Assembly: GCA_014905635.1 (NCBI GenBank) | Contig: JABVCE010000005.1 | Span: 930,001-994,000 of the forward strand | Reading direction: 5' to 3' | Source of the DNA: Scenedesmus sp. PABB004 | Taxonomy: Eukaryota | DNA: 64,000 nucleotides | Shown: piece after piece, positions 2,279 through 34,131 of the stretch | Layout: each line of letters starts with the position of its first letter | Numbering within the stretch: position 1 is the stretch's first letter | The notes under the pieces: model-generated | What the model was told of the DNA's origin: nothing | Seen by the model: only the letters and a program-made list of their open reading frames with translations | The model's database searches: none | Made by a program: the position numbers and the translations under genes

Positions 2279-4662
2279 ATGTACGGGCAGGGCATGTACC
2301 CGGGCATGCCCTACGGCATGTACGGCTACGACCCGCGCGCAGCGGAGGCGGCGGCGGCCGCGGGCGGGCGCGGCGGCTGGCCGCCGCCGGCGGAGCGCGA
2401 GCGCGAGCCCGCGCCCGTCAAGTTCACCGAGGTGCGCCGCCGGCGCGGCGGCGGCGGCGGCGGCGCGCGCGGCAGGGGCAGGAGCGGCAGCCCGGCGGCG
2501 CGCATGCGCGCGTGCATGCGCGCGCCGGCCCCCGCCCGTGCGCACAGCGCGGGCACACGCCTGCCCGCCCGCGGCGGCGCGCACAGGGCAAGCTCTTCAT
2601 CGGCGGCGTCGACGCGCTGACCATCACCAAGGACGAGCTGGTGCAGTACTGCAGCGGCTGGTGCGCGCGCGCCGGCGGCCCGCGCGCCCCAGGCCCCGCG
2701 CCGCGCGCGCGCGCGCGCGCGCGCGCCGCCCGCTCGCCCGGTCTCACCGCCGCGGCGCCACCGCCGCCGCCGGGCCGTCAGGGGCGAGGTGTCTGACGCG
2801 GTGGTGATGGACAAAAAGAACTACGGCTTTGTCACCTTTGCCGACCCCAAGCACGCGATGGCCTTCCTGGAGGTCGGCCGGCGCGCGGCGCAGCGCGGCG
2901 GCGGCGCGGCGCAGCGCCGGCGGCGGCGCGGCCGCGGGGCGCGGCGGGGCAGGGCTGGGGGCGGAACGGCGCGCTCGCTGGCCCCGCACCGACCCCGGCC
3001 GTTGCCGCCGGCGCCGCCGCGCGACAGGCGCGCGAGCACACGCTCAAGGGGCGCAAGCTCGACGCCAAGGCGGCGGTGCCCAAGGCGCACCTGGGGTCGG
3101 CGCGGCTGACCAAGAAGATGTTCATCGGCGGCACCGGCGACCTCACCGACGCCGACTTCCGGGAGCACTTCAGCCAGTTCGGCGACATCGAGGACGCCGC
3201 GGTGCGGCGCAGCTGCTGCGGCGCGCGGCGCACGTGCCTGCGCGCGCGCGTGCGCGCGCGCCTGCGCGTGCCCGCGCGGCGCACGTGCCTGCGCGCTCAC
3301 CGCGCGGCCCCGCGCCGCCGCCGCGCGCCGCACGGCCGGCGGGCGCAGGTGGTGCGCCGCGAGGGCCTGTCGCGGGGCTTTGGCTTTGTGACGTTTGCCG
3401 ACGAGGTGAGCGTGGAGAAGTGCCTGCTCGTCAACCACTTCATACGGGGGCGCAAGGTCGAGCTCAAGCGCGCGGTGCCAAAGGAGGACCTCAGCGCGCC
3501 CGGCGCGCCCGGCGGGCCGGGGCTGGGCCTGCCGCTGCCGCCGGGCGCCGCGCCGTACGGCCACATGGCCGCGTGGCCCGGCGGCCCGTGGCCCGGCGGC
3601 CCGTACGGCCCGCCGCCGCCGTACGGGCTGCGCCCGCCGCACCACCACGGCGCGCTGCCGATGCAGCCGCCGCCGTACGGCACGCCGCCGGGCGGCGCCG
3701 GCGGCGCCGGCGCCGGGCCGGGCGGCATGCAGGTGGGCCCGCCCGACCCCTACGCCGCCGCCGCGGCCGCTGCGGCGGCGTGGTACGGCATGGGTTACCT
3801 CCCCCACTATTACCAGATGTGGGGCCACCCCATGTATGGAGCCATGATGCCGCCGCCGGGCATGGCGGGCGGCCCGCCGCACCCCGGCTACGGCGCCGGC
3901 GCGCCGCCGCCCGGCTACGGCGCGCACCCGCCGCCGTACGGCGGCGGCGCGCACCCGCGCGGCCCGCCGGCGCCCGGCGGCGCGGGGCCGAGCGGCCGCG
4001 CCGCGCGGCCCGGCAGCGGCGGCGGCGCCGCGCAGCCCGTGGCGGCAGAGGCGGCGGGCCCGGGCCGGCCCGGCAGCGCGGGCGCGCCCGCGGCGGCGGG
4101 GGGCGAGGCCGCCGGGGCAGCGCGAGCAGCGCCAGCCGTCGCCGGCGAGGCCGCGGCGGCGCCGCCGGGCGCTGGTGAGGAGGCCGAGCCGGCGCAGCAG
4201 CAGCAGCAACGGATGCAGCAGCAGCCGCCGGAGCGCGGCGCGCCCGCGCCCGCCGGCGCCGTGCCGCAGCAGGCGCCAGCGGAGCTCAGCCCCGCGGGCC
4301 CCAGCGGCTCGAGGGCGCGCAGCCCCGCCGAGCGCCAGGAGGCGCCGGCCGCGGGCCGGCCGGCCATGCCGCCCGGCCAGGCGCCGATGCCGCCGGGTCC
4401 GGCCGCGGCGGCGGCGGCGGCGGGGCGGCGCCCCGGAGGCATGGCCTTTGCTGGCATGCAGCCGCCCCAGGCCCGGGCCTCCCCGCTGCCCGTGGCCGCG
4501 CCGCGTGGCGCGCCGCGTGGGCTGCCGCCGGGCGTGCCGCCGGGCGTGCCGCCGGGCGTGCCGCCCGGGGTCGTGCTGCCGCCGGCGCTCGTCCCGCGCG
4601 GCCGCGGCGGCCCTGGCAGCACCGGCAGCGGCGGCGCTGGCAGCACCGGCAGCGAGAGTTAG
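2279..4662 (+). CDS. Two-RRM RNA-binding protein (hnRNP A1/Musashi/DAZAP1-like) with a Pro/Gly/Tyr-rich tail
   Basis: Exons 2279-2431, 2587-2660, 2782-2872, 3028-3201 and 3349-4662 with GT-AG introns. RNP2/RNP1 motifs: KLFIGG...KNYGFVTF and KMFIGG...SRGFGFVTF...GRKVELKRAVPK. A probable 5'UTR intron spans ~2040-2253. Confidence 0.9.
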
Positions 4663-5686
4663 TTCCGGCAGGGGTTGCAGCGGGAGGGGCCCGTGCACAC
4701 ACGTGTGCATCGTGGCTCTGCACTGATTGCGAGCGCGCCAGCAGCGTGCTGCGAACGAGCACCAGCGGCAGCGCCCCGCGGCAGCCAGCGTCGGCGGACT
4801 GCGGGCACGATGGGTGTTGGGGGCAGGGGCGCACGCGTGGACGGTGCGTGCGCGGGCGTGCGCGGTTCGGCGGCCGAGCCGGGCGGCGGGGCGCGGCGCA
4901 GCCATCAGCTGCGGCGCGGGCGCGCAGCGCCGGCGGCGCCCCCGCGCAGGCCCGTGCGCGGGCGCGCGCTCGGCCGCGTGCGTGCGCGTGATGTGTGTGC
5001 CGTCTGCACGCGTGTAGTCTGTACAGGTGTGCCAGCAGCGCAGCGCGCGCCGGCGGCGGCCGTCACTGCCGCCGCCGGGCGTGCAATCGCACCAGGTTGC
5101 CGGCGGCGCAGCGAGCGAGCGAGCGAGCAGGCAACCCAGCGGCGCCCAGCTAGGCGGGGCGGGTAGGCGCGGGCGCCAGGCAGGCAGTGTGTGTTTAGGC
5201 GCAGGCCCCTGGGTGCGTGAGGGGGCCGCGCGGCGGGCTGGTGGGGATGGCGGGGCGGGGGCGGGGGCGCCAGGCAGCCGCGGGGTGCACCGGGGGCTAG
5301 CTAGCGTAGCGAGCACTGAAGACCTCCGCCATTCTTGCTGCTGCTGCTGTGCGGCGGCGGCGGGGCGGCGGACGGCGCCCCTGCCGCCGCCGCGGCCTGC
5401 GTGCTGACGGCGCTGGAACAAGCTGCCGCACAGCAAACCACGGCGCCGGCCACGCGCACTAACGCATGGGCTGGCTGCCGCCGCTGCCGCTGCAGCGGTG
5501 GCGGCCTGGCGCCGCCGCGCGCTCGGGTGTCGGTGGGAGGGCGCGGCGGCGGCGCAGGACGGCGGGGCGTTGGTTGGCGTTGCTGGCGCCGCGGGGGCTC
5601 TCTTGTCGCTGCGGTGTGCTGCGGCCTGTGTTATTTGGTCAGCGCGCGGACGGCCCCCTAGCGTGTGTGCGCGGCCTGGCGGCGCG

Positions 5687-5691
5687 TGTAA
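5687..5691 (+). terminator. TGTAA polyadenylation signal, probably of the RRM gene
   Basis: Chlorophyte UGUAA signal ~1 kb downstream of the stop codon, after a GT-rich UTR-like stretch. Confidence 0.5.
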
Positions 5692-5989
5692 GCCGCGGAC
5701 GCCTTCGTCGCCGTCGCTGCGGCCAGAGTTGCAGCGGCGACCCTCGCTCGCGATCGCGCGCGCGGGGGCCCTGCCGCTCACTTGCCCCGCCACAGCCGGC
5801 CTACTCGCTGCCGCTGGCAGCAGCTCTCGCTCGCGCTCTCCCGCTCGGGCCCTCCTCCTCGCCGCCCTCTTGCTCACCGTGCGCGGCGAGACTCTCGGCG
5901 GGGCCCACGCGGCGGCGGCGGCGGCGGCTCGCCGCGGGGGACGTGGGCGATCACGGCTGGCGCCATGCCGCGCCGCACTCGCGCACCAC

Positions 5990-6059
5990 GTCTGCCCTCA
6001 CGTCGCGGATGCAGACCCTCGAGCACATCGAGGGACTCATCCGCGACGTGTGGGCGGAC
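5990..6059. repeat. Hairpin H1 (~30-bp stem, 5-nt loop)
   Basis: gtctgccctcacgtcgcggatgcagaccctcga / gcaca / tcgagggactcatccgcgacgtgtgggcggac; one G:U, two mismatches, one bulge. Confidence 0.85.
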
Positions 6060-6060
6060 C

Positions 6061-6158
6061 AGGCGCTCCGAGGCGCCGCGAGGCTGCCCGTGCCGCGGGA
6101 GTCGTCGGTGGCTGCCGTGCTCCGCGACAAGGGCAGCCTCGGCGCCTCGGAGAGCCTC
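6061..6158. repeat. Hairpin H2 (~35-bp stem)
   Basis: aggcgctccgaggcgccgcgaggctgcccgtgccgcgggag pairs with ctccgcgacaagggcagcctcggcgcctcggagagcct; three mismatches and two small bulges. Confidence 0.85.
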
Positions 6159-6296
6159 GGCGCGCAGGCGCGCGCAGTGCGCACGCACGCGCAGACCCGG
6201 GCGGCGCACGGCAGCCCCGGCGCCCTGCCGCCAGACGAGGCGACCGCCGCTGGGCCCGTGCTTGCCGCCCCAGCTCCCCTGCCGGCGGCTGCGCAG

Positions 6297-6657
6297 GCGT
6301 GCGCAGCGCGCCGGCACGCCGACCCGGTGTCGCGCGGCCACGCAGGGGCGCACGCGCGCGTGAGCTGCGCCGCGCGCGTGAGCCGCGCCGCGCGCGTGAG
6401 CAGCGCTGCGTACGCACAGGCGAGGTCCTTTCACCGGCCAGCCAGGTTCGCCGCTTCCCCCGCTGGCAAGCGCTCCGTCGCGGGTCGCGACGGTGGGCTG
6501 ACAGGGGAGGAGGCGACTCGCTGGTGGCGCTCCGGTGGCGGCGGCGCCGATGCTGGCGTCGTCTGATGCGGGCCCGCGTCAGAGGCCCCGGGGCCTCTGG
6601 CTCCGGCCGCAGCACACGTCGCACGCTGGTCGGCGCAGGCGCATCAGTCGTTGCCAG
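6297..6657. repeat. Three weaker, degenerate hairpins H3-H5 (6297-6415, 6432-6537, 6553-6657)
   Basis: H3: gcgtgcgcagcgc/gcgctgcgtacgc closing three cgcgcgcgtgagc units. H4: caccgg..cttcccc..ccgtcgcg/cgcgacgg..ggggagg..ccggtg. H5: ctggcgtcgtctgatgcg/cgcatcagtcgttgccag with an inner cagaggccccggggcctctg palindrome. Confidence 0.5.
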
Positions 6658-6725
6658 GCGCACCTGGGCCAGCGTGCGGCCGGGCGCGGCGCGCGCGAGG
6701 CGCGGCCCCCGAGCGCGGCCGCGAC

Positions 6726-6805
6726 GGCGTGCAGGTGGCTGGCGCTGCAGCTGAAGCGCGCGTTTCAACTCGCGCTTCAGCTGCAGCGCCAGCCACCTGC
6801 ACGCC
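6726..6805. repeat. Hairpin H6: perfect 35-bp inverted repeat with a 10-nt loop
   Basis: ggcgtgcaggtggctggcgctgcagctgaagcgcg (6726-6760) + cgtttcaact + exact reverse complement (6771-6805). Confidence 0.95.
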
Positions 6806-6915
6806 AGCACGGCGGCCGCGTGCCCCGCGTGCAGTGCCGCCACCGCCCCCAGCACGAGCCGCGGCGCGCTCGCCAGCTGCTCGCGCGTGTCTTCAGCGTC
6901 GTCCCGCAGCAGCGG

Positions 6916-7007
6916 CTGCGCAACTAGCCCGGTCAGCGCGTCCGTCAGAGCGCGCGTGACCGGCCATGCGCGCTCTGACGGACGCGCTGACCGCGCTGGT
7001 GGCGCAG
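6916..7007. repeat. Hairpin H7 (43-bp stem, 6-nt loop)
   Basis: ctgcgcaactagcccggtcagcgcgtccgtcagagcgcgcgtg / accggc / catgcgcgctctgacggacgcgctgaccgcgctggtggcgcag; two G:U pairs, two mismatches. Confidence 0.95.
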
Positions 7008-7100
7008 AGGGTCCACCTGAACCTGGGCGCGTCCACGAGCGCGGCGGCCCCCCCAGGGCCCAGGTGCGCCGCACGGGACAGGCCAACGCGCGCGCGCACC

Positions 7101-7180
7101 GCAGCAGGCCGAGCGACGCGTGGTCGTACGTTTCGCAGCAGCGTGGGGCACCAACGATCACGCGTCTCTCGGCCTGGTGC
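7101..7180. repeat. Hairpin H8 (27-bp stem)
   Basis: gcagcaggccgagcgacgcgtggtcgt pairs with acgatcacgcgtctctcggcctggtgc; one G:U, two mismatches. Confidence 0.9.
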
Positions 7181-7293
7181 ACACGCGCGAGGGGCGAGGG
7201 GCTGCCGCGCGCGGGGCTGGGGCTGCGGCCGCCGCACGCAGGGCTGCCACCCGGTGCAGCGGGCCGCGGCGGCAGGCCGCGGTGCCCTCGCTG

Positions 7294-7388
7294 GCGCCCT
7301 TGGCCGCCGCAGACGCCTCCATGTCGTGGTTGGCGACGTAGCGTGACTGCGACAGCGACATGGCGGCGTCTGCGGCGGCCACGGGCGC
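7294..7388. repeat. Hairpin H9 (33-bp stem)
   Basis: gcgcccttggccgccgcagacgcctccatgtcg pairs with cgacatggcggcgtctgcggcggccacgggcgc; two mismatches. Confidence 0.92.
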
Positions 7389-7432
7389 ACGCCCGGCCGC
7401 GCGCTGTCCGACGCGGCAGGGCCCCCGGCGCC

Positions 7433-7515
7433 CGTGATGATCGCCGGCGCGGTCTTGGGAATGAGCCCGCTCGACAAGCAGATCATGCACCAAGACCGCG
7501 CCGGCGGTCACCACG
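7433..7515. repeat. Hairpin H10 (26-bp stem)
   Basis: cgtgatgatcgccggcgcggtcttgg pairs with ccaagaccgcgccggcggtcaccacg; one U:G, one mismatch. Confidence 0.9.
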
Positions 7516-7748
7516 TCGCCGCCGCGCAGCGCCACGCAGCGGCCGCCGCTGCCGCCGCGCCCAGGCGGGCCGGCGCCCAGCGGCGCATCCGTCGGCGTAA
7601 ACGGCGGCGCCCCTGCAAGCAGATAAGGGCGGGGTTAGGAGGGGTGCGGGGCAGGCGCGGGGGTGAGAGGGGCCAGGCAGCGCGGCGCGCGCGCGGCGCA
7701 GCAGCGGCGCGGCGCACCCCCAGGCGTGCCGCGCTCGGCCAGCCGCAG

Positions 7749-7872
7749 CGCACGAACGCGTCGTCCGCCACGCGCGCGGCCTCCGGGCTGGCGAGAAGCG
7801 AGACAGCGCGTTCGGCGACCCGCTTCGCGAGCCCAGAGGACGCCGCGCGCTGGGGCGGCGACAGCGGGTGCG
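7749..7872. repeat. Hairpin H11 (~38-bp bulged stem)
   Basis: gtcgtccgccacgcgcgcggcctccgggctggcgagaagcg pairs with cgcttcgcgagcccagaggacgccgcgcgctggggcggcgac with several bulges; closed by cgcac/gtgcg. Confidence 0.75.
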
Positions 7873-8168
7873 AGGCGATTCGGGGGTGCGTGCGGGGCGC
7901 GCGGTGCTGAAGCGGGCGAGCCCCGGGAGCAGTGCGCGGGAGCGCGGCCGGCACGGGGTCCAGCTGGCGGCGCGGCGCAGCGGACGACGGAGAACCGCCG
8001 CGGCCGCTGCGCGTCGGCTGCGGCGCGGCTCGACCTCGAGGCGCATGGCGTGCTGCCTGGCGCCCAGGTGCGGCGCTGCGCGCGGCCGGCCCGTGCCCAG
8101 GAGCAGCACGGGCCGCGCGCCTCCTCTGGCCGCGGGGACAAGGGCGCAGCGGCTCGATCGGCGGCTTC

Positions 8169-8358
8169 ATACCTTTCTCGGCTTTTTGGCTAAGATCAAG
8201 TGTAGTATCTGTTCTGTTCAGTTTGATAGCTGAACTCCAACTCATTGAGTTGGATGACTATCAACCTTATCTTTTGGGGCGGCGAAGCACCGGGCGCTTG
8301 CGCCCAGCTGACCCACGCATGGCCCGAGCCTTCCACTCCCGCTCGGGGCGTGCAGCCC
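8169..8358 (+). ncRNA. U2: U2 spliceosomal snRNA
   Basis: The 5' end ATACCTTTCTCGGCTTTTTGGCTAAGATCAAGTGTAGTATCTGTTCT matches plant/algal U2, including the branch-point recognition sequence GUAGUA. Stem IIa (ttcag..ctgaa), stem IIb (tccaactca/tgagttgga), the IIc complement ctatcaa, a Sm-like site, stem III with GCUUGC and stem IV (cccgagc/gctcggg) are all present. The 3' end is approximate. Confidence 0.95.
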
Positions 8359-9603
8359 GTATACATCCAAACTAACGCGGCGGCGGCGGCGGCCGAGCTG
8401 CGCGCGCGCGTGCCACGGCGCTGGCCAGCGCCGCACGCGTGCGCGCCTGCCTGCAGCGCTCCCGGCAGCCGCAGCGCTGCGTCCCCTGGTCCCGCTGCGC
8501 GCGCTCCGCCGCCGCCCAGGCAGTCCGCCGCGTCCACCGCGGGGGCAGCGACAGCTCGCCGTCCGCGCCGCGCGCGCCCGGCTCTCGGCCGCCGATCGAG
8601 GCAGGTCCGTCAGCCGCGCGCGCCCAGCAGCAGCGCGAGCTGCTCGCTGCGCGGGCCCGTGACCGCCGCGCCGTCGCTGTCGAGCGGCACCGGCGCCGCC
8701 TCGGTCAGCAGCAGGGGGCGGCCGTCAAAGCCGAGCAGCGGCACGCGGCCGCTGGCGCCGCGCGCGCAGGTGCCCACGGGCGGCGGCGGCAGTGCCGCGT
8801 TGCGCGCCGCGACGCCCGCCGCTGCGAGCTCGGCGGGGCTGGCCCCAGGCGCCGAGGACGCCGCTGCGAGGGCAGCGTGCTGCTGACGTCCACGGTGGCC
8901 GCGAGCGTGGCGAGCGCGCCGTGCGGCGGCGGCCGGCCGCACCAGCCGCGCTGGAGCCTCAGGCTGCTGCTGCTCGCCACCCTGGGCGACCCCCTGGGAA
9001 CCGCCGCCTCCCCGTTGGAGTGGCCCGCCGGCGGGGCGCGGCGTCACCGGCAGCTGCCGCCGCTGCCTGTTGGTCGCGCGGCGCCCCCAGCCTCTCCGGC
9101 CGGTCGCATCGCCAGATCGGGACTCTCACGACAGCTCTCGCGCAGCGCACTGCCGATCGGGGGCCGGCACGCCGCGCAGAGCCAATTCTGGCATGCCCGG
9201 TGCCTGAACCCCTGGCGGGTGACCCCGCCTTCCTGCGGCCCCTATTTAGGGCGGCGCGACGCCCCACGGGTCCCAAACCCACAGTATCACCGTCCGCAGC
9301 CTTGGCGGGTGAGCGCGCTGCGGGGGGGGGGGCGGGGGGGGGGGGGGGGGGGGGGCACGCGGCGTCTGAGCTGGGGAGCGCCCCTGGGAGCGCGCTGAGC
9401 CGGGGTCGCCCGCGGCGCAGCCGCCCGTGCAGCGGTAGATCTCGACGCGCCGCAGCGGGGCCGTCCAGGTCAGCCGCGCGCCGGCGCGATTGGGCGCGCG
9501 GGCGACCGCCATCAGCGGGGCTGCTGAGCCGCGCCGCCCGCTGCCCGGACGCAGATCGCTCCCGCCGCCCCGCTAAGCCCGCTCCCCACCGAACACTCCA
9601 CCC

Positions 9604-11194
9604 ATGGCGCGCGCCGCCGTGGCCCTGGCCCTCCTGGTGGCCGCGGCGGCGGCCGGGTCGGCGAGCGCTTCCTACTGGAGGCCCCACGGCTGGTACAAGC
9701 GCCGCTGCTACGTGCCCGGCTGCGAGACCTGCGACGACTGGAACCCCGCCCGCTGCACCGCCTGCGCGGCCGGCTATGCTCCACTGGGCGACGGCACCTG
9801 CGGTGGGCGGACGCGGCTCCCCGCGCGCGCTGTTGGGCGGCGGGCAGCTGACGCCCGCGGGTTGGTCCCGCCCGTCGTCACCCCCCGCCGTTTCTCACCT
9901 CTCCACCATCGCTCACCCGCCCGCCGCAGGCTGCGCACCTGGCTACGGCTCCTGGGTGAGCCCCGCGTCCGGCGCCCTGCCGACCGCGCCGCCGACCTGC
10001 CCGAGCGTCAAGTGGCGGCGGTCGGCCAGCGCCGCGGGCGGCGCGGCCGCCACGACGGCCGCCGCGGCCGTGTCCTTTGGCGGCGCGGGCGCGGGCGCGG
10101 GCGCGGCGCACAGCGCGGCGTCGTGGTACTTCAACAAGCCGAGCTTCTGCCACCGGCGCTGGACGCCGACCCCCGACTGCCAGCCGCCGCCGACCTGCAG
10201 CCGGGCCGGGTTCTGCGAGTGCTTTGCCTGCCCCGCGGGCTTCAACTCTTCGGGCGGCGCGATCGCGCGCGCGGCGTGCGTCGGCACGGGCGCCAGCGGC
10301 CCCGGCACCGGCGGCGGCTCCACCGGCGGCGGCGGCTCCACCGGCGGCGGCTCCACCGGCGGCCACGGCAAGTGCGCGTCGTCGCCCCCCGCCGCGGCCA
10401 ACGCGCAGCCCTTCTCCAAGTGCCCCAAGCACGCCAAGGTCGGGCGGCGCTGCAGCGCCGCGTGCCGCGACGGCTTCAAGCCCGCCCCCGGCACCGGCGG
10501 CGTGGTCGCGACCTGCACCGCGCCCGGCGCCTGGGTCGTGACGGGCGCGTGCGTCCCCGCGGCCGGCCCCGCGTGCCCCGGCGCGCCGAGCGCGGGCGCC
10601 AACGCCGGCGCGTGGGACGCGCCCTGCGCCGACGCCGCGCTCGGCGCGACCTGCGCGGCCGCGTGCGCGCCGGGCTACGACGGCACGGTGTCGGCGACGT
10701 GCTCCGACGCGGGCTGGGCGGTGTCCAACACCTGCGCGGCCGCCGCGGCCGCGCAGTGCCCCGGCTCGCCCCCGGACGGCGCCTCGTACGTCCCCTTTGC
10801 CGGCTGCGCCGACGGCGCGGCCGACGACGTGTGCGACTCCACCTGCGCCGCCGGCTACGACGGCACAGTCGAGGCGGTCTGCGGCGCGGCCGGGTGGGAG
10901 GTCTACGACGACTGCCTCCCGACGGGCGGCGGCGGCGGCGACGTCGTGTGCCCCGGCCCGCCCCCGGCCGACCCGGCCGCGGGCGACTGGGCCGCCGGCG
11001 ACGGCGTGTGCGCCGACGGCGCCGACGGCGACGTGTGCTACGGCACGTGCGCCAACGGCAGCCCTGACGGCTACGCCGAGGCGTACTGCGCCGCGCCAGA
11101 CGGTTGGTACCTGGACGTCTTCTGCGACACCGGCGGCCGCCGCGCCGTGCGCGCGCCGCGCGCCGCGCGCCGCGCGCCGGCCGCGCAGCCCTGA
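9604..11194 (+). CDS. Secreted cysteine-rich protein with CxxC motifs and four ~55-aa six-Cys (sushi/CCP-like) repeats
   Basis: Signal peptide MARAAVALALLVAAAAAGSAS. Exons 9604-9802 and 9930-11194 (GT-AG). The repeats read C-P-G-x-P...C-x-D-G-A-x-x-D-V-C-x-x-T-C-A-x-G-Y-D-G-T-V-x-A-x-C...G-W-x-V...C. Confidence 0.8.
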
Positions 11195-21096: not shown

Positions 21097-22617
21097 GCGG
21101 CGGCGGCGGCGGCGGCGCGCGCTGCTCAGCGCCGCCGGCCGCCCCGCGCCAGCCCAGATTGGCCGGTGCGCCAGCCGCGCCAGCCGCGGCGGCCAGGCCC
21201 CCCCCCCCCCCCCACCCACCACCCACCACCCACCTCCAGGTGCGAGGGGTTGGGCGCGATCGACACCGCCACCGGCGTGCGCTCCGGGCCGACGCGCACG
21301 ACGCCCGACTGGCCTGCGCGTGCGCGGGGCAGAGGCGGGCCTCGCGCCTCGGACCGCGCGCACGCGCGTGCGCGACGCGCCGCCGCCGCCGGTTTGGGGT
21401 TTAGCAGCCGCAGCGCCCTGCCGCCGCCGCGCGCCGCACCGAGGTGGTACTTCACGTCCCCCACGCGCCACGCGCTCTGCTGGCCCTCCATCTCGGTGCA
21501 CAGCGCGCCGAGGGGCTTGCCCAGCAGGTTGACGAGCAGGCTCAGCCGCCCCCGGTGCGCCGCGGCGACCTCCACCTTGCGCAGCCCGCCGGCCGCGCCG
21601 GCCTCGACGAGCGCGAGCAGCCCCGGCAGCAGCGCCTCGCAGCCCTCGAGCCCGAAGCGCTTGCTCGCGGGGTACTTGCGAGAAAGGAACTGCTCAAAGC
21701 CCTGCGCCGCGAGCAGCCAGCGCAGGACCTGGCGCTTCGCGCGCGGCCCGAGCGGGCGGCGCGACTCGAAGCGCGCCTCCATCCACTCGACCTCGTCCTG
21801 CTGCTGCAGGTGCTTGTGCTCCAACGCGAGGCGGCCGCAGTAGGCGGTGCTCATCACCTCGACGGCCTCGTGCGCCGCCCACAGGCGCTTCGCGGGCGCG
21901 CCGTCCGCACCGCCTGCGGCAGGCGCGCGCGCGCGCGGGCCTCGGCGCGGCGCCGGCGGCGGCGGCGGCGTGCCGAGGGCGTGCGCCGCAGCCCCGACTG
22001 CCCCCCGCCCTCCCTCAGCCCCTGCCACGCTGCGCGGCAGCACGCACGGGGCATGAGCGACCCGACCGCGAACAGCCGCTCCGGGTCGGCCGGCCCCGCG
22101 AGGCCGAGCTGCGCCGCGACAAACGCGCAGCGCTGCGCCGCCGGCGCGCCCCAGGGGTAGCCGGTGACCAGGCGCACGAGCGTGGCGTCGCTCCGCGTGT
22201 ACTCGCCGCCCACGGGCCCCAGCCACGGCCCCACCGCGGCGCGGCGCAGCGGGTCGAGCTGCGCCACGAGGTGCCCGCGCGAGCGGAACCTGCGCGGCGG
22301 CGGCGGGTCGGGCGCAGCGCAGCCAGCGCGGGCGGCAGGCGCCGGCGCCCGCGCCTGTGGATGTAGGCAGCCAGCTTCAGCGAGTCCTCCACCTCCAGCT
22401 GGTGCGGCAGCTGCTGCTGCTGCGCCCCGCCGCGCGCCGCGGCAGCCACGTCCGCCGCCGACGCGCCGCCGCTGCTGCCGAACGCCCGAACGCCCGCACG
22501 CCCGCCGTGCCGCTGCTGCACCACCGCGCTGGCGAGGCCGAGCTGCTGGCACAGCGCCGGGACGAGCAGGCGCAGCTGCCGCATGGCCGCGCAGCTCGCG
22601 ACTTTCGCGAGCGCCAT
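16668..22617 (-). CDS. OGDH: 2-oxoglutarate dehydrogenase E1-family protein (mitochondrial), about 20 introns
   Basis: Motifs [49 protein letters not shown], the TPP motif [10 protein letters not shown]...[62 protein letters not shown] and [12 protein letters not shown]. The N-terminus resembles a mitochondrial presequence. Confidence 0.93.
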
Positions 22618-22908
22618 CGCGCGCGGAGCCCGCTGCGGGCTCGGGTTGAGTTGGCTATAACGAGCGGCTCACAAGCGCCATCGTTGCGGCGTGCCTGCTC
22701 CGCTGCCGCCGCTGCGGCAGCGCGGCGCTGCTGCCGGCGCCGGCGGTGGCTGCCGTCCTGGAAAGCGTGACGCACAGGCAGGGAATGTCAGCAGCAGGCA
22801 TCCCGGGCCGCACGCCCCGGGGCGGCGGCGGCGCCGCGGCGGCGGTGCAAGGCGCGGGCGAGCCCAGGCGGCCGAGCCCCGGCATCGCGCGCGCTCCCGG
22901 AGCTTAGA

Positions 22909-22913
22909 TTACA
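22909..22913 (-). terminator. TGTAA poly(A) signal, probably of the XRI1-like gene
   Basis: ttaca on the + strand, about 1 kb downstream of the stop at 23975. Confidence 0.45.
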
Positions 22914-23974
22914 GAGGATTCAAGCATCACCACCCGGCCTGGCATATTACGACGCCCGCCGCCCACCCGTAGTGATCATGCTGTGGTCGTCAGCCGCACG
23001 CGCACGCCGTCGCTCGTCAAGACTCGACACGAGTGTGTCCCGGGTGCCCCCCGCGCCCCCGTCCCCCACGTCACACGCAGCAGTCCAGCAGCAGCACTTT
23101 CCAGCGCCGTGACAGTGAGCCGGGGCCGCAGCAGCAGCGGCACCAAGCAATCGGGCCGCGACCAGGCGAGCCGCCGCTGAGCGGGCAGCGGCCAGCCCCG
23201 CCGCCCGCGGCCGCGATGGCAGGCCGGGGCGTGGGCGCGCTGGCTGGCCGCCGCCGTGAGGAGAGCCCCCCCCCCTCCTCCACCCACAGCACGCGCGCGC
23301 GCGCGCTACCCCACGGCGCGCGCCGCGTGCTCGAACCACAGGCACCACCACCACCACCCAACTCGGTTGAGGTCAATCAATCTTCGCAGCCCGCCGGACG
23401 GCCGGTAGGTAACTCGCGCACGCGGCGCCCGCGCGCGGCGCACGCCACGCGCGGGGGCGGCGGCAGCACACACGGCTTGGAGAGCGCAAGGTACGACAAA
23501 CACACAGGGCACGGGCCGCCTTGCAAGCTCAGTGCGTCGCACGCCGGGCGGGGCGCGCACGCGCCCCGCCCGCGGCCAGGAAGAGACGGGGTGTGCGTTG
23601 AGGGGTCGACGGTGCTGCAGCAAAGAGCAGGGTCGTGCTGCGGCAGGGGGCACGGCGAGGGATGACGGGAGCGCGCGCGGCTCCGCGGAGGGTGAGGTGA
23701 GGTGGTGGGGAATGAGGCATCGTGAGTTGGTGAAGAATGACGCAGTGCTCCCGACGCAGTCGGTGCAGTGCCAGTGCCAGTGCGCGGGCGCGTCGCTGCG
23801 CCAGCCCCCCTGCACAGGCTTGGCGGCGGCGCGCCACAAAAAAACTGATCGAACGCGGCGCGCAGCCGCGCCTGCAGTGCTGCCGTGCCCGCGGCTGTTT
23901 CATTCCCGGTCGGCCGACGCCCCCATCGGCCGACGCCCCCGCTTGATTGCGCTGCCGCTGCTCCCCCGGCTGTC

Positions 23975-25229
23975 TCACACCATCTTGCAGCTGCTGCGGA
24001 TCTTGGCGTTGAGCTCCAGCAGCGAGAGGCCGCCGCCGAGGCTGTAGTTCTGCGCGGCGGGGGGCCGGCGGCGGCGAGCCGCGCGGCCGCGGGCGGTGAG
24101 TGCGGGCGGCGCGGCCCCCGGCACGGCGCCGACGCCCCGACTCAGCCCCCTGCCGCCCCGGCTGCCCGCCCCCTGCTGCCCGCCCCCTGCTGCCCGCCCC
24201 CTGCTGCCTGCCACCGCGCACTGCCGCCGCCGCCGCCGCGCTGCTGCCCGCCGCAGGCGCCGCCTCACCTTGACCGCATCAAACGGCTGCAGCACGCCCG
24301 ACCACGCGGCCGGCCCCTCCACCGCGACGCGGCTGCGCTTCTTTGGCCCCGCGGCGCGGCTGGCCCCGGAGCTGGCCGCGAGCACGCGGCGGGCGCGCGA
24401 CTTGGAGGCGCGCGCGCGGGGGTGGCGCGCTGCGGGGGCGGAGCAGCAGCGGCGGCGGCGGCGGGGCGGCATGAGGCGCTGCTCGGATGGCCGCCAGATT
24501 GTGAAGTCGAGCTCCCCAAGGTGGCAGGAGGTCCCCGAGCCCGGCGGCAGCGCCGGGCGGGCGCCCGCGGCCCGGGTGCAGCAGCGCGCAGCAACGGGTG
24601 ATGGCGGCCGCCGCGCCGGCCCCGGGGGAGCCCGCGGCGCGCCGCGCCGCTCGCGGCGCGCGTCTCGGCTCACCCTGGCCCTCCTCCTCGCTGCCGGAGG
24701 TCGCGGAGGCGTCGCTGGTGTCCGCGGAGCTGGTGCCCCAGGCCGCGCAGGCGTCCAGGGGCACCGTCACCGCGGGCCCCGCCTCGGAGAAGCAGGAGCC
24801 GCGCAGGGCGCGCTCCAGGTCGAGGCCGCCTGGGCGCGCGGGGCGGCGCGCGGGGGCGGCGTCGAGAGAGCGCCACGCACGCTTCCAGGGCCGCCCCCGC
24901 CGCCCCTCGCGCCCCGCGCGCCGCTGCGGCGCGCCACGCACGCTCAGGGCAGGCGCACCAACCGAGATCGCGCGGGCTGGTCAGCCCGCCCGCAAAGGCG
25001 GCGCCGGGGGAGGGCGGCGATGGCGGGCCGTGCGCCGCGAGGCAGTCTGCGGGCGGACGGCGCGCTCAGCGGCGGCGCGGCCGCCCGTAGGCCGCCTTGA
25101 GGCGCGCAGCGCGCGTGGCGCACCATACTCGCTGAACACGACGTCCAGCGGCTTGGCCAGCGAGTCCGCTCGCTCCTGCAGCAGCGCCTCCGCCAGCCCG
25201 GGCGCCCAGCCGCCCGCAAAGGCCTCCAT
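23975..25229 (-). CDS. Small Ser/acidic protein with a C-terminal XRI1-like motif
   Basis: ATG at 25229 (MEAFAGGWAPGLAEALLQERADSLAKPLDVVFSEYG), three GT-AG introns. It ends ...GVLQPFDAVK|NYSLGGGLSLLELNAKIRSSCKMV*, similar to the YPF-x-x-VKP-x-G-x-x-G-x-x-TL-x-DIN-x-RI motif of plant XRI1. Confidence 0.6.
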
Positions 25230-25449: not shown

Positions 25450-28400
25450 TCACGCCCGCGCCCACACCGCGCGCAGGCTGTCCGCCAGCAGGGCCACCCG
25501 CTCCTGCGCCTGCGGCGGCGGCGGCATCGGCGTGAGCGCGCCGCCCGTGCGACTCGTCCCGTGCGCGCGCCGGCCGCGCCAGGCCGGCCGACCTGCACGT
25601 CCTCGGCCGCGGGGCAGCAGCGCAGCGCGTCCAGCAGCGCCGCCTGCAGCTCGGCGGGCAGCTCCGGCTGGCCCGCGTCCTCGTCGGCGAGCCGCCAGAG
25701 CCAGGGCAGCACGCGGTGCAGCATGACCCCCTCCTGCGAGCGGGGCGCCCGCGCGCTTGCAGGACGCGCGCGGCGCCGCCACCGCGCACAGGGGCGCGCG
25801 CGTCCTGCAAGCGCGCCGCCGCCGCCGCCGCAGCCGCCACACCCGGACGTTCTTGATGAACACGCCCAGCAGCTCCACGGCGGTGCGCTGCCGCAGCGCG
25901 CCCCACACGGGGCCGGTCTTCTGGGCGAGGCGCATGAGGTGCACCACGCCCTGGCCCGCGGCCGCGGCGTACGCGGCGTCGATGTCGCCCGGTGTCGCGA
26001 CGCCGCCGCCGGCCGAGGTCGGCGTCGGCGCGCCGCTGCAGCTGCGGTGCCCGCCGCCGAGCGCGTCGAGCACCGACAGCCCCGGCCGCCGCGCGCCGGC
26101 GCCGCTGGGCGTGCTCCAGTCCTCCGAGCGCACAAGCCGGTCCAGCGCTGCGCCTGGGTCGGTGCTGTCGAGCGGCGGCCGCGGCGCCAGAGGCGGCGCC
26201 GCGGCGGCGGGCGTGCGCTCCGCGGCCAGCGCGGCGGCGGCGGCGGCGGCCGCCGCCGCTGCCGCTGCCGCGCCGCCGCCCATGCTGCTGCTCCTGCCGG
26301 CGCCGCCCAGCAGCCGGCTGGGCGAGCCCGGCCCCAGGGGCTGCGAGGGAAACGAGCTGCCGTGCCCTGCGGCGGCGCCGGCGCGCTGCGCCAGCTCCAG
26401 CAGGCCCACGCGCTCCTGCAGCGCGGCCAGGCTCGTGGGCAGGCCTGACGCGAGCGCGCCTTCGAGCTGCGCGACCCTGGCCGCCAGGCTCGCCGCCGCG
26501 TGCTGGTCGCGCGCTGCCTGCGCCTGGCAGAGCGCGAGCTGCTGCTGCAGCTGCTGCCACTCCTGCTGCGAGGGGCCGGCCCATGATGAAGCAGGCTGCT
26601 GCTGCGCGCCTGCAGGGCGGGGCGGTCGGCGGGCGCCGTCGTTTTAGGGGGGCGGGGCGCTGCGGCGCGCACCCACACGCGCGCGGCTGGTCGCCGTGGC
26701 GCGCCCACCTGTCGCGCTCGCCACCCGCGCCCTGGTGCTCGCCTGCCGGCTGGGCCGCGCGCTGCCGGCCAGCGAGCGCGCGGGGGACGGGGACGTCGCC
26801 GAGCCGGCGCCCTGCTGCTGCGACGCCGGGGCCTCCTCGCTGCCGCCCGCGGTGATGCGCTCGGGCTGCGGCGCGTCCGACGCGGCCGGGACCTCGAGCG
26901 CCACCAGGCTGTGGCTGCTCTGCCGCTTGACCGCCGGCTGCTCCGCTGTGGCCCGCCTGCTGCACGCGGCGCTGCCGGGCCGGCTCGCCGGCAGGCTGCC
27001 GGGCCGGCTGGGCGGCCTGCTGCATGGCGCCGCGCCGCTGCTGTGCGACCACTGGCGCCGCGGCTGCGGCGGCGCAGTCGGCGCGGCCGCCCCGATCGCC
27101 GCCGCCGCAGGCTGCTCCTCGCCAGCCTGGCTGCTCGCCTCTGACGCCCCCGCCTCGCCGCCGTCGCTGCCGGCCTCGCCGGCGTCGCCCCGCTCGCACG
27201 CCAGCTGCACCGCGCTGCTGCCAGGCTCGGCGACCACGTCGGCGCGCGCCGCCGCGAGGTGGAAGCGCCGACTTATGGGTGATCCCCGCAGGCCCGCCAG
27301 CGAGCGGCGCTCGCCGAGGTCGGCGCTGCCCGGGCGCGAGGGGCTCGCCGCCGCCCTCGCGGGGCTGAGCGGGCCTGCGGCGGGCGGGCGTGCGCGGCGA
27401 GTGGCGCGGGGGCCCCTCGTCCGCACCGCCGGCAGGGGCAGCAGGCAGCGCGACCGGCGCCCCGCACCTGCGTAGGGCGCGTGGCTGTTGACCCACGCCG
27501 GCCAGTCGCCCTCGGGCCCTGCCTCGGCCACAAAGCGGTGCAGCTCCTGCACGAGCCCCGCCGCGTCGCGCGCCGCGTCACGCGCCTCCTTGACCTGCGG
27601 GGGCGGCGCCGCGCCCGGGGCGTCGGCGGCGGCCGCCCGGCGAGCCGGCCGGGCCGCGCGCGCGGGCCGGCGGCGGCGGCCGCGCGGCGCGCCTTGTCGA
27701 AGCGGGAGGCCTCCAGCGCCTCCAGGCAGCGTTGCGTGAGCGAGGCCGGGTCGCCCAGCGCCCAGCAGCCCTCCGGCTCGAGCGCCGGCCCAAGCAGCAG
27801 CACCGCCGCGCGCACCGCGTCCGCCGCCGCGCGCCGCACCGCCCAGTCCTTAGCGGCGAGGCAGCCGAGCAGGCCGCTGCCGGCGGCGCTGGCCTCGTGG
27901 CTCGCGGAGCTGCGCCGCGCGCCGGCGGGCTGTCCGACCAGGTGGCCAAGCACGGGCGCGAACGCCGGCGCGCCTGCCTTGAGCAGCCCCACGGGCGATC
28001 GGGTCTCCGGGTCGGTGCTGGCGACCGCCGCGAGCAGGCTGGCGGTGCCCTGGAACGTCGGCGAGCGCAGCAGGCGCAGGACGACCTTGACCAGCTCCCG
28101 GTCGAGCGGCCCGAGGACCGGCGCGACCTGGCGGCGGCAGCAGGACGCCGCGCGGCCGATGGCCAGGTGCGTCAGTCAACCACGGCAGTTGATCGACGGC
28201 GGCGGTCAGCGGCGGTCAGCTGTGCGCAGCCCCCTCCCCCCGTCTCCCCGCCCCCCGTCGGCCTCACCATGAGCAGCGCCTGGCTCGCGCCCATCTGGCC
28301 CTCGCGCTTCTGCTCGCCCAGGACGTCAAAGATCGCCCGCACCACGGGGCAGGACGTGCTGCCCGGCAGCGCGCCGCCGCCCGCCTCGGCGAGCGCCCAG

Positions 28401-29277: not shown

Positions 29278-34131
<4,854 letters not shown>

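Follow-up and report, generated by a model that had tools for sequence, protein, structure and literature searches.

What, if anything, is encoded by the string of long hairpins that lies between an RRM gene and the U2 spliceosomal RNA gene of Scenedesmus sp. PABB004, an alga with a very GC-rich genome (80% GC)? A first-pass annotation of the 64-kb window (the whole stretch of DNA that was analysed) had described about ten such hairpins in a region lacking a recognisable gene, and had taken them for candidate precursors of small RNAs. Refolding located seven strong hairpins (5990-7515) and a moderate one, H8, where that annotation had placed them (Table 1). The remaining three, weaker fold-backs within 6297-6657, dropped out, as the encompassing segment 6160-6720 folds with a z score of -1.17 and 12 of 100 shuffled sequences fold equally well.

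Table 1 Features of the hairpin locus and its surroundings; energies and z scores are listed for the plus strand first.
Feature	Position	Strand	Description	dG (kcal/mol)	z score
TGTAA	5687-5691	+	Downstream of the RRM gene; likely poly(A) signal		
Gene-free spacer with hairpin cluster	5692-8168		Starts directly 3' of the TGTAA behind the RRM gene and extends up to U2		
H1	5990-6059		0 of 200 shuffles as stable	-60.9, -58.5	-9.6, -7.8
H2	6061-6158		Gapped stem, ~41-43 pairs	-79.3, -80.1	-6.4, -8.1
H3	6726-6805		Perfect 35-bp stem, 10-nt loop	-99.2, -101.4	-12.9, -13.6
H4	6916-7007		Arms 40-46 nt, uninterrupted core 26-29 bp	-90.0, -83.1	-11.0, -9.1
H5	7101-7180		Arms 27 nt, complementarity 89%	-57.6, -52.9	-5.9, -4.2
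H6	7294-7388		Arms 33 nt, 31 matches	-81.9, -76.6	-8.4, -6.8
H7	7433-7515		Arms 26 nt, 24 matches	-62.1, -67.7	-8.1, -7.7
H8 (moderate)	7749-7872		Core arms 7760-7784 / 7838-7862, complementarity 76%		-3.9, -4.2
U2 spliceosomal RNA gene	8169-8360	+	RF00004, full length, 142.4 bits, E 4e-29; bounds the locus downstream		
Low-complexity hairpins outside the cluster	555-587, 556-583, 838-923, four at 30001-30047		GGC/GCC-type		

Each hairpin was folded singly as RNA on both strands and compared with 200 dinucleotide shuffles. The z scores range from -3.9 to -12.9 on the plus strand and from -4.2 to -13.6 on the minus strand, and in none of the 16 folds was a single shuffle as stable, so that all eight hairpins are significant on either strand. 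The stem of H1 (~22 bp) comprises a 13-bp perfect core and is accompanied by an inner 7-bp stem and a weaker extension to 5969-6080; a similar weaker extension carries H3 to 6715-6816. H8 is the weakest of the eight, with a longest helix of 9 bp and a z score of about -4 when folded as 7745-7876. In the minimum-energy fold of the entire 5900-7950 RNA all eight hairpins stay separate local domains, whichever strand is folded. The arms of one hairpin are unrelated to those of another, as the first-pass annotation had stated, and the 64-kb window contains no second copy of any arm.

The clustering was evaluated by two scans, both with this 64-kb window alone as the genomic background. A gapless inverted-repeat scan of the window, with 15 dinucleotide shuffles of it as the null, yielded 20 hairpins with a score of at least 14, six of them within 5900-7900 (shuffle mean 2.2). 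At a score of at least 18 there were six hairpins, four of which belong to the cluster (shuffle mean 0.13), and at a score of at least 22 three of four did (shuffle mean 0). At least seven of the 14 hairpins outside the cluster are of GGC/GCC-type low complexity, an assignment made from the sequence for 838-923 and from coordinates for the others, and the other 62 kb hold just two perfect hairpins of high complexity. The second scan measured folding energy in sliding 110-nt segments (~3,200 in all) corrected by GC regression, with z<-2.5 defining an outlier. It returned 12 outlier clusters, of which seven fall within 5961-7530, one is U2 and four lie elsewhere. The two scans agree with the earlier impression that no comparable density of hairpins occurs elsewhere in the window.

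The boundaries of the locus likewise came out as proposed, with the cluster between the RRM gene's TGTAA and U2. TGTAA, which we take to be the chlorophyte poly(A) signal, occurs five times in the 64 kb, and four of the five copies lie directly past gene ends. The copy at 5687 is the sole TGTAA or TTACA within 4000-8200; no canonical TGTAA is present between the cluster and U2 on the plus strand, or on the minus strand within 4000-8200. A search with the Rfam 15 covariance models at the gathering score returned U2 as the sole match in 64 kb and none in the cluster. Querying metagenomes with the peptide of the RRM domain retrieved 30 loci with GC contents of 0.31-0.77, none of them a close relative; the best matches the peptide at 77% over 26 residues.

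The hairpin arms differ in composition from the DNA that separates them. The 90-nt segments centred on the hairpins have a GC content of 0.68-0.79 and a 3-mer entropy of 4.7-5.2, compared with 0.73-0.87 and 4.0-5.1 for the linkers. In a sample of eight arms, scored with a self-trained codon table, the best-of-six codon score is 0.38; GC-matched 36-mers from non-coding DNA reach 0.04 (p 0.0035), and the arms do not differ from exon 36-mers, which reach 0.51. The frame contrast of the arms (1.67) also exceeds that of non-coding DNA (1.01, p 0.0006) and is close to that of exons (1.74). The arms are thus exon-like in GC content, complexity and codon periodicity, and the linkers are non-coding-like. 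The exon-like fragments are present in both orientations. Since the arms are exon-like and the linkers are not, inverted duplication of exon fragments is the most likely origin of the hairpins, and the data fit their birth from short fragments of this kind. Neither targets nor parent sequences of the arms were found within the 64-kb window, where 30 of 182 arm 21-mers recur with at most three mismatches, no better than linker 21-mers (~95 of 343, a control count from which unmasked self-matches of 4700-5900 were set aside).

These properties point, tentatively and with somewhat less than an even chance, to a multi-hairpin precursor locus for endo-siRNAs or young-miRNA-like RNAs. All eight hairpins are fold-backs with about 21 nt or more of near-perfect duplex, and none overlaps a detectable protein-coding exon, both of which are expected of small-RNA precursors. 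The best 21-nt stretch has 19-21 paired positions in each of the eight on both strands. Judged from the sequence, every hairpin provides enough duplex for a Dicer-type enzyme to act on. In this reading the DNA from the RRM gene to U2 would be a non-coding locus, and RNA from either strand would fold into seven or eight stem-loops of 26-46 bp in a row, near-perfect and independent of one another. A Dicer-like enzyme may free one or two ~21-nt duplexes from each stem. If short exon fragments gave rise to the arms through inverted duplication, the resulting small RNAs could pair with coding sequence of their parent genes at other places in the genome. We infer for this scheme transcription of the spacer, a single precursor, dicing, targets and an RNAi machinery in this alga. 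Against it stand the lack of a strand preference in pairing and stability, of a canonical TGTAA beyond the cluster that would mark a transcript end, and of any target or parent sequence in the window. A more specific version, which we consider rather unlikely, would make the locus a collecting point for inverted exon-fragment copies of several unlinked genes, expressed as one multi-hairpin RNA, a polycistronic endo-siRNA/proto-miRNA cassette with which the alga would adjust several genes together. Were it true, the locus would capture small-RNA genes at the moment of their birth in a chlorophyte.

The principal alternative is that the hairpins are non-functional local inverted duplications, produced by template switching or fold-back repair synthesis in the only long stretch that is free from coding constraint and tolerated as scars. 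They would form a local hot spot, in which existing hairpins might stall replication forks and provoke more. Short template-switch mutations, reportedly characterised by Loytynoja and Goldman in 2017, make perfect inverted repeats; like them, the cluster has short loops and a perfect stem beside its template, such as could arise in one step. The identity of the arms, from 100% (35/35, H3) to ~76% (H8), is as expected for scars of differing ages, the hairpins have no common motif when the arms are judged by eye, and within the window this region shows the weakest constraint. The plus-strand RNA that the first-pass annotation had modestly favoured is not supported. The excess of G:U pairs on the plus strand that had been reported (about 6 versus 3) disappeared on recounting, with 13 such pairs on the plus and 14 on the minus strand, a lack of asymmetry that also suits scars; by folding energy the plus strand is the more stable for four hairpins and the minus strand for four. 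However, 4700-5900 and ~22600-23900, which are also long and lack coding signal, are devoid of such hairpins. Furthermore, copying of local non-coding DNA should have given linker-like arms, and the arms are exon-like instead. Four scattered hairpins checked elsewhere in the window do resemble local non-coding DNA (GC 0.85-0.90, frame contrast ~1.0), unlike the arms of the cluster. Template-switch events are also reportedly scattered and draw on local sequence, whereas here eight hairpins lie within 1.9 kb and their arms are unlike the local non-coding DNA. On balance the scar explanation appears to be a minority prospect. Should the hairpins be silent, this would be a striking inverted-duplication hot spot in an 80%-GC genome, relevant mainly to the mechanisms of mutation.

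An orphan or decaying protein-coding gene with a hairpin-rich mRNA, for example an ORF starting from the ATG at 6009, was considered next and is quite improbable. A codon-model gene finder was applied, with antisense sequence as the background. It recovered the neighbouring 5-exon RRM gene at 193 bits and gave at least 62 bits in 45 of 50 tiles over real genes. Within the spacer the best models are a 249-nt stretch on the plus strand (5997-6245, 23.7 bits) and a 180-nt stretch on the minus strand (6769-6948, 20.5 bits), compared with an antisense background of mostly 12-22 bits; lying on opposite strands, the two cannot be joined. When the hairpins were taken for the introns of a micro-exon gene and the intron penalty was cut to 2-4 bits, the scores came to 24-30 bits. 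Spacer models thus span 20-30 bits versus 8-29 bits for antisense and non-coding controls, which they equal even when introns are cheap, and the micro-exon gene was rejected. The ATG would, moreover, be buried in a -61 kcal/mol hairpin.

Protein searches gave the orphan gene one nominally significant match. A phmmer search of the plus-strand ORF 6009-6563 against 1.84 billion representatives returned two proteins: P0001, a TIR/NACHT/TPR_10 repeat protein (E 1.8e-9), and P0002, a bacterial Ig/cadherin protein. The P0001 match adds up nine alignments of the same query segment to a repeated unit; one unit by itself reaches just 11.5 bits, and a second is absent from every frame. The control comparison for P0001 is biased because P0001 itself was picked by the same query. 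Both matches are judged to be effects of repeats or composition. The spacer has no Pfam domain at E<=1. Word-based searches found no match, annotated or unannotated, for the minus-strand ORF 6040-7482 among proteins of 264-842 residues, nor for residues 183-300 of the plus-strand ORF among proteins of 201-643 residues, and the ESM Atlas provided no usable matches. The language-model recognition scores fall below the value reached by 91 in 100 real proteins. The gene finder, Pfam and the protein searches consequently bear out the earlier view of a cluster without a recognisable gene; the spacer has no detectable protein gene or convincing homologue.

Exon-like fragments without a gene, in both orientations, would also be found in the cargo of a non-autonomous transposon (Pack-MULE- or Helitron-like) or in tiny fold-back elements with captured exon fragments. 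This origin is very improbable. No convincing terminal inverted repeats bound the cluster, the long-range inverted pairs being GC-rich with 73-90% matches; inspection of the hairpin flanks showed no target-site duplications, and Pfam identified no transposase domain. The arms, unrelated to one another, are present once in the 64 kb, unlike MITEs and fold-back transposons, which are recognised by several copies of one element, target-site duplications and shared terminal repeats. A role at the DNA level would have cruciform-forming repeats serve, between the RRM gene and U2, as a replication origin, a site of recombination or a chromatin boundary. It is compatible with the intergenic position and with repeats that are equally good on both strands; it is nonetheless most unlikely, given that no motif for a binding protein is common to the arms when judged by eye, that the exon-like arms are left unexplained and that other intergenic spacers of the window have no analogous feature. 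An assembly or amplification artefact, namely chimeric inverted joins, is hardly credible for arms that are imperfect to differing degrees (76-100%), loops that are unique and a local density (eight in 1.9 kb, as opposed to two that are perfect and of high complexity across the remaining 62 kb) unlike that of random chimeras.

Two further classes of RNA were set aside. No run of four T was seen in the sequence as would suit a Pol III transcript. H7 opens with a box-C-like GTGATGA, but no box D was recognised by eye, the stems are too perfect for a snoRNA and Rfam is blank.

The small-RNA precursor reading has its nearest counterparts in Chlamydomonas reinhardtii, where hairpin-derived miRNA and siRNA precursors are said to have been described by Molnar and by Zhao, both in 2007. 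Stem-loops of this type, located in introns, UTRs and non-coding RNAs, give rise to the DCL3-dependent miRNAs and siRNAs of Chlamydomonas (Valli et al. 2016, PMC4817775). As presented in the main text of that paper, the DCL3 substrates resemble the Scenedesmus hairpins in being near-perfect stem-loops of similar size in a chlorophyte, and likewise need no conservation outside the lineage. What defines the Chlamydomonas loci is their small-RNA reads and their dependence on dcl3, whereas the Scenedesmus cluster is defined by its sequence. Furthermore, the precursors presented there are single hairpins and the word 'cluster' does not occur in the main text (PMC4817775), whereas in Scenedesmus seven or eight different ones are strung together. 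A literature search largely confined to non-subscription journals turned up no account of a green-alga array in which many small-RNA precursors are non-homologous; if the hairpins yield small RNAs, the locus would be such an array. It would also be a compact, testable locus (~2 kb, eight hairpins) for substrate choice by algal Dicer-like enzymes.

In its layout the cluster resembles the polycistronic miRNA clusters of animals and mosses, in which several different hairpins occur within 1-2 kb at a spacing of tens to ~100 nt, and its hairpins could similarly be cut from one primary transcript. In Physcomitrella about one quarter of the miRNAs lie near another MIR locus, according to a statement in PMC4368373 that cites Axtell 2007. 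Animal cluster hairpins are shorter, imperfect and Drosha-dependent, whereas the Scenedesmus stems are longer and nearly perfect, and their common transcript is putative.

With regard to origin, young plant MIR genes and Drosophila hpRNA loci reportedly derive from inverted duplication of target-gene fragments, as proposed by Allen et al. in 2004, Fahlgren et al. in 2007 and Okamura et al. in 2008. If the Scenedesmus hairpins share this origin and yield small RNAs, their exon-like arms would be a natural example of small-RNA genes formed from inverted copies of their targets. The parent genes of the plant and Drosophila loci are named by sequence similarity, whereas the exon-likeness of the Scenedesmus arms comes from composition and periodicity. 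Near-perfect fold-backs with coding-like arms are common to all of them, and in Scenedesmus the codon periodicity was measured.

Hairpins H1–H8, the inverted repeats between the RRM gene and U2, were confirmed at the positions in the table. Each was folded singly on each strand and compared with 200 dinucleotide shuffles. All eight outfold 200 of 200 shuffles on both strands, with z-scores of -3.9 to -13.6. H3 has a perfect 35-bp stem, H4 has an uninterrupted core of 26–29 bp, and H8 is the weakest. When the 2,051-nt RNA of either strand is folded globally, each of the eight remains a distinct domain. Three "weaker" fold-backs (6297–6657), also proposed in the first-pass annotation, are no better than chance (z -1.17). 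Its plus-strand preference is likewise absent: G:U pairs number 13 on the plus and 14 on the minus strand, and four hairpins are more stable on the plus strand, the other four on the minus strand.

Table. Features of the hairpin region and best scores of the exon-chaining program.
Feature	Position	Strand	Best score (bits)	Remark
RRM-domain gene (RRM_1)			193	Upstream of cluster; Pfam; five exons recovered correctly
TGTAA	5687	+		3' of RRM gene; one of only five TGTAA/TTACA in window
H1	5990–6059
H2	6061–6158
H3	6726–6805
H4	6916–7007
H5	7101–7180
H6	7294–7388
H7	7433–7515
H8	7749–7872
U2 snRNA gene, full-length	8169–8360			Downstream of cluster; only Rfam match in 64 kb
Cluster model	5997–6245	+	23.7
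Cluster model	6769–6948	-	20.5
Weaker strand per tile			mostly 12–22	Mostly antisense
Tiles over real genes			62 or more	45 of 50 tiles
Cluster, cheap introns			24–30	Penalty 2–4
Controls, cheap introns			8–29

The high hairpin density claimed for the cluster was borne out by an inverted-repeat scan and a sliding fold. The gapless scan found 20 hairpins with scores of at least 14, six of them inside 5900–7900, against a shuffle expectation of 2.2 (15 shuffles of the window). At scores of at least 18 the cluster holds four of six, and at 22 or above three of four. At least 7 of the 14 hairpins outside the cluster at the lowest threshold are of low complexity (GGC-type). After correction for G+C, the roughly 3,200 windows (110 nt each) of the sliding fold yielded 12 outlier clusters, 7 within 5961–7530 and one corresponding to U2. 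A second stretch without coding signal, 22600–23900 (tile 22231–24701, best model 30 bits), gave no notable hairpins in the sliding fold and is thus a useful internal control. The hairpin cluster is a robust and unusual structural observation.

Other repeats occur within the cluster. Between H2 and H3, at 6348–6410, an 18-nt unit (GCGCCGCGCGCGTGAGCA) is repeated in tandem (3.4 copies, 91% matches). A 26-nt inverted pair, 6657–6682 and 7045–7070 (81% complementary), flanks H3 and H4, which are unrelated in sequence; its axis, 6863.5, is the exact midpoint of the H3 (6765.5) and H4 (6961.5) axes. The pair could close a two-hairpin domain or be due to chance.

Protein genes were sought with a small purpose-written exon-chaining program, whose codon table was trained on strongly periodic stretches of the window itself. 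The five lowest-scoring tiles comprise four spanning 3706–9881 and the one at 22231–24701. Pfam returned no match at E ≤ 1 for 13 open frames of the cluster region, nor did two word-based protein homology searches of the cluster frames, and language-model recognition of these frames falls below the level reached by 91 of 100 proteins of known families. An exhaustive phmmer search (1.84 billion representatives) gave two weak matches to a plus-strand frame. The better is a TPR_10 repeat protein (TIR/NACHT/TPR; E 1.8e-9), an E value inflated because it sums nine repeats that each align to one query segment. The match was taken as spurious, as one unit on its own scores 11.5 bits and no frame contains a second. 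The matching stretch, 6102–6332 (VAAVLRDKGSLGASESLGAQARAVR...), resembles a single TPR_10-type repeat, on which Pfam is silent. Gene models, Pfam, homology and language-model scores agree with the initial reading of no recognisable gene and lead us to conclude that the DNA holding the cluster is non-coding. An orphan or decaying gene has no positive support and is improbable.

The composition of the hairpins differs from that of their surroundings. In 90-nt windows centred on hairpins, G+C is 0.68–0.79 and 3-mer entropy 4.7–5.2, which are exon values (references 0.73 and 4.81); the 15 linker windows between hairpins (0.73–0.87 and 4.0–5.1) have non-coding values (0.81 and 4.35). For one arm per hairpin, taking the best of six frames, the mean codon score is 0.38, compared with 0.04 for GC-matched non-coding 36-mers (n = 306; p 0.0035) and 0.51 for exon 36-mers (n = 140; not different), with only eight arms and a self-trained table. 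Frame contrast, a measure of three-base periodicity, is 1.67 in the arms, 1.01 in non-coding DNA (p 0.0006) and 1.74 in exons. Four hairpins checked elsewhere in the window have G+C of 0.85–0.90 and non-coding-like contrast. On these eight arms and the self-trained table, the cluster hairpins are exon-like islands, each with its own inverted copy, amid ordinary non-coding DNA, and the weak coding signal consequently flips strand at the hairpin axes. The minus-strand reading of H7 (7433–7507; ...LSSGLIPKTAPAIITGAGGP...) is reminiscent of the glycine-rich nucleotide-binding motif at the N terminus of short-chain dehydrogenases. Pfam found no match in the frame carrying it; the reading may hint at a parent gene.

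Judged by its anatomy, the cluster may be a hairpin small-RNA locus with putative expression, a reading that we hold tentatively. Stem length and perfection suffice for a Dicer-like enzyme, the hairpins fold independently of one another, and their surroundings are non-coding. Inverted duplication of exon fragments is the origin model for such hairpins in the plant MIR literature; if these hairpins originated in that way and their products pair with mRNAs, coding-like arms are to be expected. The small-RNA interpretation is partly strengthened, being plausible but unproven. The main rival, tolerated scars of local inverted duplication, accounts for the spread of arm identities and the absent strand bias. 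However, it leaves unexplained both the hairpin-free state of other long non-coding stretches and the difference of the arms from local non-coding DNA, and we consider it unlikely. Transposon cargo is less likely still, and a DNA-level cruciform role and an assembly artefact are the least probable, all three lacking positive support.

Hairpin-derived small RNAs are already known from chlorophytes: PMC4817775 describes Chlamydomonas stem-loops located within introns, UTRs and non-coding RNAs as DCL3 substrates yielding miRNAs and siRNAs. The cluster hairpins are alike in form to those substrates. The locus would work like a hairpin small-RNA precursor, a putative analogy rather than class membership. 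Animals and mosses are known to carry polycistronic arrays composed of different hairpins (PMC4368373 for mosses). A limited literature search found no green-algal example of such an array described, which does not prove absence. Were the small-RNA reading confirmed, the locus would represent a variant, in array form, of a known type of small-RNA source.

G+C is 75–84% throughout the window, and its genes are of ordinary green-lineage nuclear type. Among 92 exon-like segments listed, 48 were run against Pfam and 18 matched families, including chlorophyll a/b-binding protein, MCM, cyclin, 2-oxoglutarate dehydrogenase E1, XPG and LRR. Four of the five TGTAA/TTACA sites (5687, 22909, 29196 and 40548, with 33582 the fifth) lie just past coding-region ends on the matching strand, consistent with poly(A)-signal use; most genes of the window have none nearby. 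Downstream of U2, a long plus-strand open frame (8663–11194) encodes repeated cysteine-rich units (…CAAACAPGYDGTVSATCSDAGWAVSNTC… and similar), with no Pfam match to 9941–11149. One of the four hairpins checked outside the cluster, a perfect 22-bp stem with a 22-nt loop (25751–25816), lies entirely within a ~105-nt intron (25735–25839) of a minus-strand gene. Unlike those of the cluster hairpins, its arms look non-coding (G+C 0.85). In Chlamydomonas, miRNAs arise from hairpins situated in introns, and this one is a candidate of that type.
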